Shown: positions 8,100 through 21,511 of the stretch, piece by piece
Position numbering within the stretch: the stretch's first letter is position 1
How the letters are laid out: the number at the start of each line of letters is the position of its first letter
IMG/VR virus record: IMGVR_UViG_2713897042_000013
Span: 1 to 25,270 of that record
Length of the DNA stretch: 25,270 nt
Direction: 5' to 3' (one strand)
Source: a virus
Lineage: Duplodnaviria > Heunggongvirae > Uroviricota > Caudoviricetes
The notes under the pieces: model-generated
Told to the model about the DNA's origin: nothing
Databases searched by the model: none
The model's input: only the letters and a program-made list of their open reading frames with translations
Translations under genes and position numbers: made by a program

Positions 8100-8723
8100 T
8101 TATGCGACCTCGGAAGGAAGTCCAATCATCTTATTCAAATCTTCTACCCGTAAAGCAGGAAGTGCTGTACTTGCTATATCTGCTTCTTTTGGTAGCAACT
8201 CTTTGCTTTCAGGCCAAACTTCAATAAGTCGCTTAACTGTTGTGACTGAGTTCAAAGCAGCCCATACATTTGATTCGATATCCTTTTTCTTGGCTTCAAG
8301 TTTTTGTTGCAATGCGCAGATTTCATCAAACCTTTTTGTTATTTCGTGTTCTGCGCTAAACATGCATTTATCTTTGGTCGGAGTAGGGAGCAATATATCT
8401 TCGCCGTTGCCGTCTTTCCCATATGAATACCAGCCAACCCTTCTGCCAGATACAGTCAGATAAATTGAAGTTGAACGGGCATCGCATGAGTAAAATGAAC
8501 ATCCCAGCTTTTCAAGTTCTTCGCTTATAGCCATTAACTTGGATGATAACTGATCCACTTCCTCAGTTTTCTTTTTACCGCCAAACGCAACAACTCTGGC
8601 GTCAAGTGCAAGCTGGTTCTTTAACTTTGTTACTTCTTCAAGCTCAGTGAAAACCCCAGATTTAATTAAAGCGTTACGAGCGATTTTCTCTTTCATTCTC
8701 GTAGTTAAGCGGATTGATGACAT
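8100..8723 (-). CDS. Hypothetical protein (207 aa) between N and cIII, where lambda has sieB/ral/ea10
   Basis: Start taken at ATG 8723 with GAGGAA upstream. Hydrophilic, no recognised motif. Confidence 0.75.
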   Translation of the reverse strand: MSSIRLTTRMKEKIARNALIKSGVFTELEEVTKLKNQLALDARVVAFGGKKKTEEVDQLSSKLMAISEELEKLGCSFYSCDARSTSIYLTVSGRRVGWYSYGKDGNGEDILLPTPTKDKCMFSAEHEITKRFDEICALQQKLEAKKKDIESNVWAALNSVTTVKRLIEVWPESKELLPKEADIASTALPALRVEDLNKMIGLPSEVA

Positions 8724-8784
8724 ATTAATTCCTCTCAAATAAGTGGTTTGCTGCCTAATTTCATTTTCTGGCGACCAACACAAG

Positions 8785-9057
8785 TCATCTTGCTGTCAGT
8801 TGTTTGGATTTCCGGTAGCCTGCCGCGTAAAGAGCTACATTTGGAAGACAAGTTGAGCCTTCATATTTTCTGGTCAACGTTGTCAGTGTTATTACTTCTG
8901 CTCTCATTGCTGGTTTGCGCTTGCATTGCAAGACCACTCGAGAGGGGGTTGGTCTGTGTAGCTTGTCGGAGCTAATCGCCTCCTGACTTTGCAGGTTTGC
9001 GCGACGAGCTCTACGACGAGAAGCTGAGGTGCCTTTAAATTCTGTTTTTCTGGACAT
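8785..9057 (-). CDS. N: N-like transcription antiterminator (90 aa)
   Basis: Start ATG 9057 with GGGAGGAA upstream. N-terminal arginine-rich motif GTSASRRRARRANLQSQE resembles the phage 21 and P22 N ARMs. Lies downstream of nutL and pL. Confidence 0.8.
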   Translation of the reverse strand: MSRKTEFKGTSASRRRARRANLQSQEAISSDKLHRPTPSRVVLQCKRKPAMRAEVITLTTLTRKYEGSTCLPNVALYAAGYRKSKQLTAR

Positions 9058-9154: not shown

Positions 9155-9200
9155 CTGGCTTTTCAGCCACGTAGTCGAGAGTCGACGTTGTTTAAAGAGC
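9155..9200 (-). promoter_or_regulatory. nutL: boxA-like GCTCTTTAAACAACG and boxB-like hairpin TGGCT-GAAA-AGCCA
   Basis: Read on the minus strand. boxA resembles the rrn/lambda boxA consensus; the hairpin has a GAAA loop. Confidence 0.6.
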
Positions 9201-9246: not shown

Positions 9247-9310
9247 AGTATCACCGCTGGAGGTATTTTCGTCAACACCGCTAGAGATAAAATATTACCG
9301 CAAATGGTTA
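9247..9310 (-). promoter_or_regulatory. pL promoter with oL1-oL3 operators
   Basis: Minus strand -35 TTGACG, 17-bp spacer, -10 GATACT. Operators TATCACCGCTGGAGGTA, CAACACCGCTAGAGATAA and ATTACCGCAAATGGTTA resemble lambda oL1-3. Confidence 0.8.
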
Positions 9311-9458: not shown

Positions 9459-9485
9459 AAAAGAAAACCCGGCGCGGAGGCCGGG
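9459..9485 (-). terminator. Intrinsic terminator downstream of the rex-locus module (tImm-like position)
   Basis: Minus strand: stem CCCGGC / GCCGGG with loop CTCCGC, followed by TTTTCTTTT. Confidence 0.7.
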
Positions 9486-9500
9486 CTGAAGGGGCTCATT

Positions 9501-10430
9501 CTAATCGATTGATTTAATATCCCATTGAGGTCGAGAAACCAGAGTGTATCTGGGCTTGCCCTTACCAACAGTTTTTTTCAGGAACGTGGCTGTTGCAACG
9601 CTTCCTAAGTGCTTGTTTATAATATCTGGGTCATCTACAGCTTTGTCAATGCTAGCGGTTCTGATATCAGTGTTACCTAAAACTATAAATTCACATTGGC
9701 GCTTGTTAGGAAGAGTTCCCAAAAATATAACGTTCTCAATAATTTTTTCCTGCTGAATGTTATCATTGCTGAGATGTTGATATACAGCTTCAAGCTGTTT
9801 TGGCTCTCTAAAAACGATGCTAAAACCTTGGCTTTTAAGTGTAAAAACTGTTTTATTTTCATGCAGATAATGAATGAATGCTCTGATTTTATCTAAGGCC
9901 CGAGAGTCTAAGTTTTCTATAGCATCAGACAATTCTTCATCATCATTATCCAAGCTTGCCTGAAATATTTTTCTGGCCTTATTAATAGCTTTTGCTACTG
10001 GGGTTTCTTCATCGAATTCAAGAGGAGCATCAGGTCTAAACTCTTCAAGTACGAATCCGAAAGAACCACGGGCTGACGCGGTAATCATGAGATGATTATT
10101 TTCTATGTTTGGTATCTTGCCTGATGCAGGAAGTGGGCCATTGAAAGAGGTTGCCAAGTAAGCTATTGCATCATTAAAACAAGATATAGCTTTTGTTCCA
10201 AATACTGCTGAAATGCCATGCGTGCCAACTACTGTTGGGCCTCTAAAAGTTAACACAGCATGCGTAGGTTCATGTTCTCGAACGTCAGCTTGTGAAATTA
10301 ATCGCTCAACTTTCTCCAGACGGTCTTCTAAGCTTTTTCGGCTAATAGAATGACTTGTTGGCATATTTTTTAATAGATTACTTATTTGCTCGCGCTCACT
10401 GAGAGCGAAAACATAATCATTACGATTCAT
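9501..10430 (-). CDS. Uncharacterized protein (309 aa), distal gene of the two-gene rex-locus module
   Basis: ORF from the track. Its ATG overlaps the stop of the upstream ORF (ATGA). No recognised catalytic motif. Confidence 0.85.
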   Translation of the reverse strand: MNRNDYVFALSEREQISNLLKNMPTSHSISRKSLEDRLEKVERLISQADVREHEPTHAVLTFRGPTVVGTHGISAVFGTKAISCFNDAIAYLATSFNGPLPASGKIPNIENNHLMITASARGSFGFVLEEFRPDAPLEFDEETPVAKAINKARKIFQASLDNDDEELSDAIENLDSRALDKIRAFIHYLHENKTVFTLKSQGFSIVFREPKQLEAVYQHLSNDNIQQEKIIENVIFLGTLPNKRQCEFIVLGNTDIRTASIDKAVDDPDIINKHLGSVATATFLKKTVGKGKPRYTLVSRPQWDIKSID

Positions 10431-11005
10431 TGTTTGACCCCCTCAGTAGTAGCCGAATTAAGTATAGTCATTGCCACAACATCAAGTTGTGGGTTTAACG
10501 GGATTTGGATAAATCCCTTCCACGACAGATCGCGTCTATGTGCCCACATACTGTACCAATATACAGTCATTTCAACAAGCTCATGACTTGGTAGATTAAG
10601 TTCTTGGAAGTAGGAATCTACGAAAAACTCCTTCTTAACAAAATCATGATCAAATAGCTCTGGCTTTCTACCGATTACGATTGCATCATTATCGCCATTA
10701 CTGAATTGAAAAAAGGTCACAACATCGACATCATTCGGTGGCCTTTTTTCAATAAGTTCAATATGTTCTGTGAAGCTTCCATCTACCCACTGAAAACCTT
10801 CAACTAGCCCTGCTTGAGTGAGTGAAACACGAAAGTTAAGAAAACCCTTAAGGATTTTAATCCTTGCAGGGCTAAGCGAAAAAGTACTAACAAAGCGTAC
10901 TATATCCATTTTGTATGGGGAACGAGTATGGCTTGTAGGATCAGCCTCGTCTATTGGGGGGATTAACCCCATCTCATTCCATAGAGAGACAGTTGGTATA
11001 CTCAA
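10427..11005 (-). CDS. Uncharacterized protein (192 aa from TTG at 11005, or 181 aa from ATG at 10972), proximal gene of the rex-locus module
   Basis: ORF from the track, immediately downstream of cI on the same strand. Contains GSF-x12-PNDVDVV, weakly resembling a nucleotidyltransferase GS…DxD motif. Confidence 0.8.
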   Translation of the reverse strand: MSIPTVSLWNEMGLIPPIDEADPTSHTRSPYKMDIVRFVSTFSLSPARIKILKGFLNFRVSLTQAGLVEGFQWVDGSFTEHIELIEKRPPNDVDVVTFFQFSNGDNDAIVIGRKPELFDHDFVKKEFFVDSYFQELNLPSHELVEMTVYWYSMWAHRRDLSWKGFIQIPLNPQLDVVAMTILNSATTEGVKQ

Positions 11006-11091: not shown

Positions 11092-11808
<717 letters not shown>

Positions 11809-20323: not shown

Positions 20324-20884
20324 TTAAAGTACCCACCAGCGGATCGATTCCGTGGGTATGGTTGCAGCCTCGACTTGATGAACAATTCCCAACTCGGAGG
20401 CCCTTCCGGGATGAAGGATGGTTGCCGAAGTGATCAAATCCTTCCAATCAGCAATCTCACTTGGATTTTTCTTTTTTGTTTCAATATCCATGATTTGAAT
20501 AAATCGATTTAGATCGTCATCGAGGCATGAAGCCCATTCTCTCAATCGTAGGTGATCTGCGCTGGGTGCGGCGAACCCCCAATGCAGTGGGTGAAGAAGG
20601 AAGCGAGAAAGTGGGTTGGCAGTTCGCACTTCTCCAGCCATATAGATCACGTTTGCGATTGATTCAACATTACTGAGGTTATGCGTAGTAACCTTTACAC
20701 CAAGTGACTTTAAAAAATTGTAAGCAGTAAAGCCTGAAACTGTATCTCCACCTTTGCTGGAAATATAGAGCTTAATTTCTGTTGCTGGTTGATTAGTATT
20801 TGAAACTGCTTTTAAGCAGACATCCATCAGATTAGTTACAGAGGCAACTGTAACATCTGTCAAAAAATGTACCGTATGGATCAT
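20324..20884 (-). CDS. ClpP-fold serine peptidase-like protein (186 aa)
   Basis: GAGGAG ribosome-binding site. LYISSKGGDTVSGFTAYNFL…SNVESIANV…SRFLLHPLHWG aligns by eye with ClpP (YINSPGG…GQAASMGA…SRVMIHQPLGG), with the catalytic Ser and His positions conserved. Confidence 0.85.
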   Translation of the reverse strand: MIHTVHFLTDVTVASVTNLMDVCLKAVSNTNQPATEIKLYISSKGGDTVSGFTAYNFLKSLGVKVTTHNLSNVESIANVIYMAGEVRTANPLSRFLLHPLHWGFAAPSADHLRLREWASCLDDDLNRFIQIMDIETKKKNPSEIADWKDLITSATILHPGRASELGIVHQVEAATIPTESIRWWVL

Positions 20885-20962: not shown

Positions 20963-21511
20963 CTAGCTCTGTGGCGTGCTTAAGCATTTTGCTTCGTAAT
21001 GTACCCTCATGGAAAACATAGCGAATAACATAATGAGCTTATCGCGTAAGCTTGTAGAGGATCCCGTGAAACTTACAACCCTAGTTTCTGCTCCGTAAAC
21101 CCCAAGCTTAAAATCTCTAATGGGGGTCAAGCTATCAGGGTAACCGTGCTCCATTAGACTTGTTAAGGAGTCAATCTCACTGTTAGTGATGTCAGAGTTG
21201 TTAATTTGATGTGAGCGTTTGTTTCTGAAGTTGTTGAACCTTCGAATAAATTTGTTTAGCTCTGAGCTCATCCCATAGTTCATCGCAAGCTGAGCTTTAA
21301 TGGCAAAATCCATGTTGATATTTTCGCCAAAACCGCTGAAGAAATCCCTGTTACCAGAGGCACAGATAATCCAAGCTTCCAAGATTTGTTCAATCAAAAG
21401 GTGAGTGCGGAGATAGATACCAATGTCATCTTGGGACCGAACTATAGTCATTATTCTATCGGGTTGATGGGATGCTAAAGTCAACTCTTCAAAATGAGTA
21501 AAATCAAACAT
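20963..21511 (-). CDS. Hypothetical protein (182 aa) with a HEPN-like RNxxxH motif
   Basis: AAGGA ribosome-binding site. Motif FRNKRSHQ (R-N-x3-H). Lies upstream of the ClpP-like gene on the same strand. Confidence 0.8.
   Translation of the reverse strand: MFDFTHFEELTLASHQPDRIMTIVRSQDDIGIYLRTHLLIEQILEAWIICASGNRDFFSGFGENINMDFAIKAQLAMNYGMSSELNKFIRRFNNFRNKRSHQINNSDITNSEIDSLTSLMEHGYPDSLTPIRDFKLGVYGAETRVVSFTGSSTSLRDKLIMLFAMFSMRVHYEAKCLSTPQS

Follow-up and report, generated by a model that had tools for sequence, protein, structure and literature searches.

In phage lambda, sieB lies in the interval between the N and cIII genes, and the same interval is where Ral and Ea10 of lambda, gp17 of P22, and Gad1 are encoded. 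Here we describe the gene that occupies the N-cIII interval of a lambdoid prophage contained in a 25,270-nt stretch of DNA (the window), which comprises positions 1 to 25,270 of IMG/VR record IMGVR_UViG_2713897042_000013. The gene (8100..8723, minus strand, with its ATG at 8723..8721 and its stop at 8100) encodes a stand-alone protein of 207 residues that we assign, with near certainty from its sequence, to the Nmad5 (nucleotide modification associated domain 5) family. Ral, SieB, Ea10, gp17 and Gad1 have no sequence or fold similarity to this protein, and they sit in a variable slot after the first terminator, whereas the window gene is conserved and precedes that terminator. We tentatively favour the explanation that Nmad5 is a non-enzymatic, immediate-early adaptor that acts in host takeover or counter-defence, and we put the probability of this reading at roughly 0.4.

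Genetic data on the family have been described for Dhillonviruses. Mutants that escape the host immune sensor Tmn have a lysine-to-glutamate change in nmad5, K216E in phage SM_A8 and K296E in phage SM_S22, and putting back the wild-type residue brings back Tmn sensitivity (Yamashita et al. 2025; PMC11846954). Deletion of nmad5 does not give escape, and the deletion phage still formed plaques for the assay; the gene could not be cloned, apparently through toxicity (PMC11846954). We checked both phage genomes and confirmed the numbering of K216 and K296. When the proteins are aligned, the escape lysine is matched in the window protein by R165, which in the stretch T-V-K-R-L-I-E-V-W-P-E is the second basic residue. 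This stretch corresponds to T-x-K-[KR]-L-[IL]-x-x-W-P-E, which is the most conserved Nmad5 motif, and the placing of a Tmn-escape residue on an invariant Nmad5 motif is a new mapping. The SM_S22 and SM_A8 proteins belong to the same Pfam family as the window protein, and their C-terminal 80 residues are 35% identical to it, but they are 254 residues long, carry an insertion of ~50 residues in the beta region, and are encoded in the head module of virulent phages.

The one known direct trigger of Tmn is RIIB of phage T2, which is described as replisome-associated (PMC13001434). Homology between Nmad5 and RIIB was considered and rejected, hhalign of a 53-sequence Nmad5 profile against T4 RIIB returning a probability of 1.2%. 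One reading of the two papers together is that Nmad5 proteins may contact Tmn, with the K-to-E form binding without activating it.

Family membership extends over the whole window protein. The match to Pfam PF18757 (Nmad5) scores 237.3 bits against a cutoff of 27 (E 2.3e-70), with residues 4-203 aligned to profile positions 1-206 of 206, and the match to PHROG 1965 ("unknown function") has an E value of 1e-80. No Pfam family besides Nmad5 was found at E < 0.1. The protein carries the full family signature, T-x-K-[KR]-L-[IL]-x-x-W-P-E ... L-P ... D-L-N-x-x-I-G-L-P, in the residues T162, K164, R165, L166, W170, P171, E172, P178, L188, P189, L196, N197, G201 and P203. All of these are invariant or almost invariant among 53 diverse members and in an 11-sequence cross-phage alignment. 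An earlier sequence-only reading of this stretch had recognised no motif in the protein, and in this it was mistaken: the protein is a full-length PF18757 and PHROG 1965 member, whose homologues are named in RefSeq as "Nmad5 family putative nucleotide modification protein". The remote-homology search thus led to a family that has no characterised member, and so no homology to a characterised housekeeping phage protein emerged from it.

The family is large, with 2304 clusters at 50% identity (E < 0.001), and nearly all of the top 150 representatives are stand-alone proteins of 190-220 residues. Under its RefSeq Nmad5 name the gene is annotated in ~4% of complete E. coli genomes (211 of 5426), and a scan of GTDB genomes for Nmad5 gave 4 loci. 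Close relatives occupy the same N-cIII position in two phages: Kapi1_018 is 98.6% identical to the window protein and its record carries a CDD Nmad5 note, and gp33 of HK542 is 94% identical. Both resemble the window protein in their size of ~200 residues, in the C-terminal motif and in the predicted fold. Gene, family and position are therefore already in public annotation; the window copy is an ordinary allele with nothing materially different about it, and as a discovery it matters little for that reason.

The name itself carries little functional information. The Nmad names reportedly go back to Iyer et al. in 2013. The searchable literature names Nmad5 in only four papers, none of which gives biochemical evidence, and searches by Pfam, InterPro and PHROG identifiers brought up no papers; the family name rests on gene neighbourhood only. 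It implies a function that is unsupported in the window and in the genomic contexts of most relatives.

Using the 53-sequence Nmad5 alignment as input, AlphaFold2 produced a confident model of the window protein (predicted local distance difference test score 91.7, predicted template modelling score 0.83). The structure prediction yielded a helical bundle with a small beta meander. Three long helices (residues 8-72) are followed by the meander (~86-121) and another long helix (127-158), and the C-terminal part consists of two short helices bearing the W-P-E motif (163-176), a flexible linker (181-193) and a terminal helix (194-200). Foldseek comparison with the PDB gave a best match of E 0.98, and sequence and profile searches of PDB sequences gave no match. 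All Foldseek matches in BFVD at E < 0.001 were named Nmad5-domain proteins or were unnamed phage proteins, with E values down to 1e-12 and a best TM score of 0.76. By these searches, the modelled fold has no solved relative.

Conservation within this model was compared across the 53 members. L166, E172, P178 and N197 are invariant; R5, I14, A18, R43, G48, G93, T162, W170, P171, L176, L188, P189, L196, G201 and P203 are nearly so. Most of the conserved residues are glycine, proline or leucine, together with one tryptophan, and the polar exceptions are R5, R43, T162, E172 and N197. No catalytic-looking invariant set was found among the 53 proteins. The pattern looks like that of a fold with a binding surface rather than an active site.

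Variation among close alleles has a different distribution along the protein. Alleles that are 92-100% identical (loci L014-L093) have their polymorphism concentrated in residues 41-120, and the C-terminal W-P-E ... D-L-N ... I-G-L-P module is the least polymorphic part, almost invariant. Several sites carry multiple radical substitutions, including K13 (E, V, D, G or I), T116 (E, D, N or I), Y99 (H or L) and A82 (V, F or S), as well as E71 and K145. The 65 alleles available hold too few substitutions per codon for a significant site-wise test of positive selection.

The coding sequence itself is well supported. A ribosome-binding site, GAGAGG (8731..8736, minus strand), lies 7 nt ahead of the ATG at 8723, and the 25 nt just upstream of this ATG, GAGAGG included, are identical in all eight of the eight commonest upstream variants from 80 related loci. 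An in-frame TTG at 8783 would give a protein of 227 residues, and the annotation of phage Kapi1 uses this form. We regard the TTG start as unlikely and the ATG as the better choice, because nearly all homologues begin at the methionine of MSS/MT-(I/V)RLT (MSSIRLT in the window). The gene is real and under purifying selection rather than a chance open reading frame (ORF), given that 78 of 80 close copies in IMG/VR prophages are intact and that the median ratio of nonsynonymous to synonymous substitution rates among the 65 alleles is 0.29. Its GC content is 40.7%, against 46.9% for the whole window, and resembles that of the accessory genes in the rex slot. The protein is hydrophilic (grand average of hydropathy -0.30, isoelectric point 7.6) and has 32 lysines and arginines against 31 aspartates and glutamates; because its net charge is close to zero, a role as a DNA mimic was ruled out.

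Transcription of the gene can be traced from the leftward operon, which runs in the order pL, nutL, N, Nmad5, hairpin, first terminator, variable accessory slot and cIII. The pL-like promoter TTGACG-17-GATACT lies at 9247..9275 on the minus strand, as do all elements of this operon. Downstream of it is a site at 9156..9200, presumably nutL from its likeness to the nut sites of lambda and P22, with a boxA GCTCTTTAA (9200..9192) and a boxB hairpin TGGCTGAAAAGCCA (9169..9156). The N antiterminator gene (8785..9057; PF25694, N_peptide, E 1e-31) is directly upstream of the Nmad5 gene on the same transcript. The next gene downstream is cIII (7705..7875; phrog_550, E 4e-22), and in the window the accessory slot that separates the terminator from cIII has no occupant.

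Two structures follow the Nmad5 stop codon. The first is a 9-bp perfect inverted repeat, GTGTATTCA/TGAATACAC, at 8055..8047 and 8036..8028, which lengthens through G-U pairs, when folded as RNA, to a 14-bp hairpin with a CAAC loop (8026..8057) in the 3' untranslated region. The 181-nt region 3' of the gene has a folding z-score of -5.0 relative to shuffled sequence. A search of the whole window against Rfam at gathering thresholds gave no match, and so the hairpin does not belong to a known RNA family. The second structure is an intrinsic terminator, GCCCTC-CAGTGT-GAGGGC followed by a T-run (7940..7965, stem at 7965..7948); being the first terminator downstream of pL, it is the equivalent of tL1. 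These results bear out several points of the sequence-only reading, namely a single hydrophilic 207-residue ORF with a good ribosome-binding site between N and cIII, no other credible ORF in that interval, and a 9-bp inverted repeat and then an intrinsic terminator downstream.

No terminator-like site was found between pL and 7965, and no promoter-like site between pL and the Nmad5 gene, leaving pL as the sole promoter-like site upstream. Because the gene precedes the first intrinsic terminator after pL, it should by the lambda paradigm be immediate-early, transcribed with N and without need of antitermination. In a lysogen, the prophage repressor shuts off pL. A strong terminator (9487..9466) moreover separates pL from the transcript of cI and the rex slot and blocks read-through from the cI operon. 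The Nmad5 gene should thus be silent in the lysogen, since pL, the only promoter-like site upstream, is under repressor control and the terminator insulates it.

A similar early position recurs in other temperate phages. We dereplicated 173 loci to 26 Nmad5 lineages at 80% identity and compared their neighbours. In 9 of the 26, a cI-type repressor (helix-turn-helix plus Peptidase_S24) lies one to five genes upstream on the same strand, which makes it the commonest neighbour in temperate phages. In the prophages of Serratia and Providencia, gene calling placed nothing between the repressor and Nmad5 downstream of it, and no N-family match was found at these loci. The neighbours of 23 diverse homologues were mostly repressors, nucleases and proteins of unknown function, and in one metagenomic phage the gene just upstream of a distant homologue is Tad2-like (Thoeris anti-defence). 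Judged by its neighbours, Nmad5 appears to be an early or DNA-metabolism gene in many settings and to accompany base-modification enzymes in a minority only.

Local architecture was compared at 116 E. coli-type loci. The gene upstream of Nmad5 is N in 74 of these and Nun-like in 11, and is otherwise another small early gene. The next gene downstream is variable: cIII, Kil, a 322-residue coiled-coil protein, unknowns, DUF2528, P22 gp17 and Gad1 were all found. Sequence shared among the loci extends through the hairpin, and at many of them through the terminator stem as well; the insertion of accessory genes takes place directly after that. Thus, just past the Nmad5 terminator, one sister E. coli prophage (locus L042) has Gad1 (6799..7773; PF25705, E 4e-67) and another (locus L054) has P22 gp17 (7301..7612; PF17420); further sister prophages have accessory proteins of 98, 156 and 139 residues, of unknown function, in this slot. 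From these comparisons, the N-cIII neighbourhood is a counter-defence hotspot, with Nmad5 as the conserved gene beside it and not as an interchangeable occupant. The slot past the terminator is worth mining for new anti-defence genes.

The hairpin at 8026..8057 is almost invariant in loci L014-L093 and marks recombination junctions: depending on the locus, relatives diverge at its 5' edge, right after it, or after the terminator. The hairpin may serve for processing or mark the boundary of a module, and the copies are too alike to provide covariation evidence. Shiga toxin phages differ in what they carry. Stx1a-converting phages have a full-length Nmad5 gene, and in Stx2a phages only a copy matching residues 34-207 was seen (e.g. 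LC616058.1, 11132..11653, with a second matching place in that record). The gene may be dispensable or split in the Stx2a lineage.

The immediate-early adaptor reading draws on a gene location ahead of the first terminator, on the place of Nmad5 as first gene in Serratia and Providencia prophages, on its low GC content and on a predicted fold without catalytic features. It draws further on counter-defence neighbours in two unrelated contexts, on the reported toxicity upon cloning and on the Tmn genetics. If this reading holds, Nmad5 would be made at once on infection or induction, alongside N, and its invariant C-terminal module would dock onto a partner that is conserved across proteobacterial hosts. 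During the first minutes it would help the newly arrived phage genome to become established or would shield it, and Tmn and other host immune sensors would meet the protein at its middle region, which is more variable.

Several observations weigh against this explanation. Homologues in lytic phages lie in tightly packed operons for replication and nucleotide metabolism, not in early accessory regions. So broad a family with so conserved a motif would be unusual for a specific anti-defence protein. Being next to Gad1 and gp17 means being next to a hotspot, of which Nmad5 is a conserved neighbour only. The window protein showed no profile homology to a characterised anti-defence family; Gad1, gp17 and the Tad2-like protein are only neighbours of its homologues. 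The Dhillonvirus protein, on which the Tmn genetics were done, is ~25% identical overall to the window protein, besides its insertion, and for the lambdoid members the adaptor role would be carried over from context and from Dhillonvirus. The allele pattern would fit a conserved docking module with a surface under diversifying pressure, and it is an observation only.

A more specific form of the adaptor explanation is that Nmad5, far from modifying nucleotides, is a very widespread immediate-early adaptor whose C-terminal module binds either some conserved machine of the host or, by their cytosolic arms, KAP/YobI-type NTPases such as Tmn. We consider this form unlikely as it stands. If it were true, Nmad5 would be both a takeover or counter-defence factor and a protein that bacterial immunity watches, and the name of the family would mislead, as would thousands of database annotations. 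The family is large, has a confident predicted fold, would be immediate-early in many temperate phages and carries the one residue known to decide the fate of a phage before Tmn. Owing to these features, the size of the family, the fold without a solved relative, the immediate-early position and the Tmn-fate residue, the lambdoid copy offers a tractable entry point; the gene is non-essential in related phages, and Kapi1 and HK542 are easy E. coli prophages to work with.

The alternative that survives best, though we find it doubtful, is that Nmad5 assists, as an accessory protein, in DNA replication, in recombination or in the supply of nucleotides. In this form it would serve as a structural adaptor to which proteins of the replisome, of recombination or of dNTP synthesis are tethered, and lambdoid phages would use it with their Erf/RecT and single-stranded DNA-binding protein (SSB) module. 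Gene order argues for it in several phages. N4-like phages have Nmad5 after ThyX and before the gp42-like, primase and SSB genes, where it abuts or overlaps the genes on either side. In Yuavirus, Nmad5 stands between aGPT-Pplase1 and an adjoining thymidylate-synthase homologue, near the DNA polymerase gene, and the Providencia prophage gene heads a module of a DUF2800 nuclease, an Enc34 SSB and PolA. Nmad5 is directly before replication protein O in Vibrio phage Athena1 and follows the primase/helicase in eiAU, and the window gene is upstream of Erf, SSB and Abc2. A link between Nmad5 and Tmn would fit as well, given that the Tmn trigger T2 RIIB is replisome-associated (PMC13001434). However, every lambdoid pL operon has recombination genes, which makes the association in the window uninformative, and Nmad5 occurs with Erf, RecT or other recombinases interchangeably. 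The window gene also precedes the first terminator, unlike the recombination genes, and the protein is neither strongly basic nor acidic. In Dhillonviruses, Nmad5 is a lone opposite-strand gene within the head module, and the deletion phage still plaqued. That Stx2a phages have only a copy matching residues 34-207 likewise speaks against a replication role.

Rather less probable is the function that the name suggests, with Nmad5 as an enzyme, or the obligatory subunit of one, that modifies nucleotides or DNA bases. Beyond the family and RefSeq product names, this idea draws on the hypermodified-thymidine phages M6, SN1 and Yuavirus, in which Nmad5 is part of a cassette beside aGPT-Pplase1 (PMC9476957); the Yuavirus record confirms this arrangement. 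Two unrelated thymidylate-synthase families are neighbours of Nmad5, ThyX in one case and in the other a Yuavirus gene so annotated. The pL operon of the window also contains a 217-residue fusion of a MazZ-like dATP/dGTP pyrophosphohydrolase (PF04447, E 8e-42) with DUF551 (4275..4928, minus strand). This is the sole nucleotide-pool enzyme in the window, however, and lies 3.2 kb from Nmad5. The C-terminal module of the window protein is 31-45% identical to those of Yuavirus and of related Pseudomonas and Bordetella phage matches, but the M6/SN1/Yuavirus cassette comprises aGPT-Pplase1, a kinase, radical S-adenosylmethionine and pyridoxal phosphate enzymes and the thymidylate-synthase homologue, none of which is in the window. 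A hydroxymethylase (for dUMP or dCMP), an aGPT-Pplase, a kinase or a glycosyltransferase partner was not found there either. The absence of an enzyme-like fold relative and of a conserved catalytic constellation argues in the same direction, as do the origin of the name in gene neighbourhood, the lack of biochemistry in the searchable literature, and the finding that most members, the window protein included, lie in genomes or neighbourhoods without modification genes.

It is very improbable that Nmad5 is a SieB-like superinfection-exclusion protein or another prophage-encoded defence protein. The gene shares the interval of lambda sieB and the low GC content of the rex-slot genes, and in some relatives it follows a Nun-like gene, Nun of HK022 being expressed by its prophage. 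Such a function would nevertheless call for expression in the lysogen, which is not expected, as the stretch from pL to the gene has no promoter-like site and the terminator at 9487..9466 insulates pL from the transcript of cI and the rex slot. The window protein has no PADLOC match, and homologues are frequently found in strictly lytic phages, for which exclusion expressed from a prophage would serve no purpose. The sequence-only reading had considered an anti-defence or exclusion role plausible. The anti-defence half keeps circumstantial support from the Gad1/gp17 slot, the Tad2-like neighbour and the Tmn escape mutants; the exclusion half is made unlikely by the repression of pL and the terminator at 9487..9466. 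We can see hardly any chance that Nmad5 is an early regulator of transcription or RNA that holds the first-gene position as N does in lambda: it is the first gene after the repressor in Serratia and Providencia prophages that have no N-family match, and it has a conserved hairpin in its 3' untranslated region, yet no helix-turn-helix or RNA-binding domain was detected with Pfam, it occurs alongside N or Nun in E. coli phages, and it lies in replication operons in lytic phages.

The window as a whole is a mosaic lambdoid prophage beside ybhC. Its left end (1..1284, minus strand) is host DNA, a partial ybhC by matches to E. coli genomes, and an integrase-sized ORF follows at 1419..2489. The left arm contains int, xis, Abc2, SSB, Erf, a kil-like gene, cIII, N, a two-gene cassette in the rex slot and a cI-sized ORF; we regard the small phrog_1723 gene as kil-like because the C-terminal part of its product resembles lambda Kil. 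The rightward arm has cII-, O- and P-sized ORFs, so called by position only, and then Ren-like, NinB, NinG, Q, lysis and terminase genes. In no complete E. coli genome does a single place account for more than 55% of the window, so the prophage is a novel mosaic of common modules.

Within the left arm, a homologue of PerC-family transcriptional activators (3463..3777, minus strand; PF06069, E 8e-15) lies between xis and the recombination genes. An SSB-like protein is encoded downstream of Erf (6460..6840, minus strand); it has no Pfam match, matches PHROG 44 (E 4e-28) and ends in the acidic tail DDSIPF. The rex-slot cassette (9501..11005, minus strand) lies between the cI-sized ORF (11805..11092) and pL, has a GC content of 38-40%, and has its own strong terminator, the one at 9487..9466. 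One of its genes encodes a 309-residue protein (phrog_18731) with no Pfam or PADLOC match, and the other, with which it overlaps by 4 nt, encodes a 192-residue DUF6932 protein that matches the PADLOC candidate PDC-M63A (E 2e-10). By these matches the cassette looks like a candidate defence system expressed from the prophage.

A pair of opposite-strand genes (20324..20884 and 20963..21511, minus strand) interrupts the rightward arm between the lysis cassette and the terminase genes. One encodes a protein with the Clp-protease fold (PF00574, E 2e-12), and the product of the other is 182 residues long (phrog_5483). The pair is a moron-like insertion, possibly another defence or accessory module.

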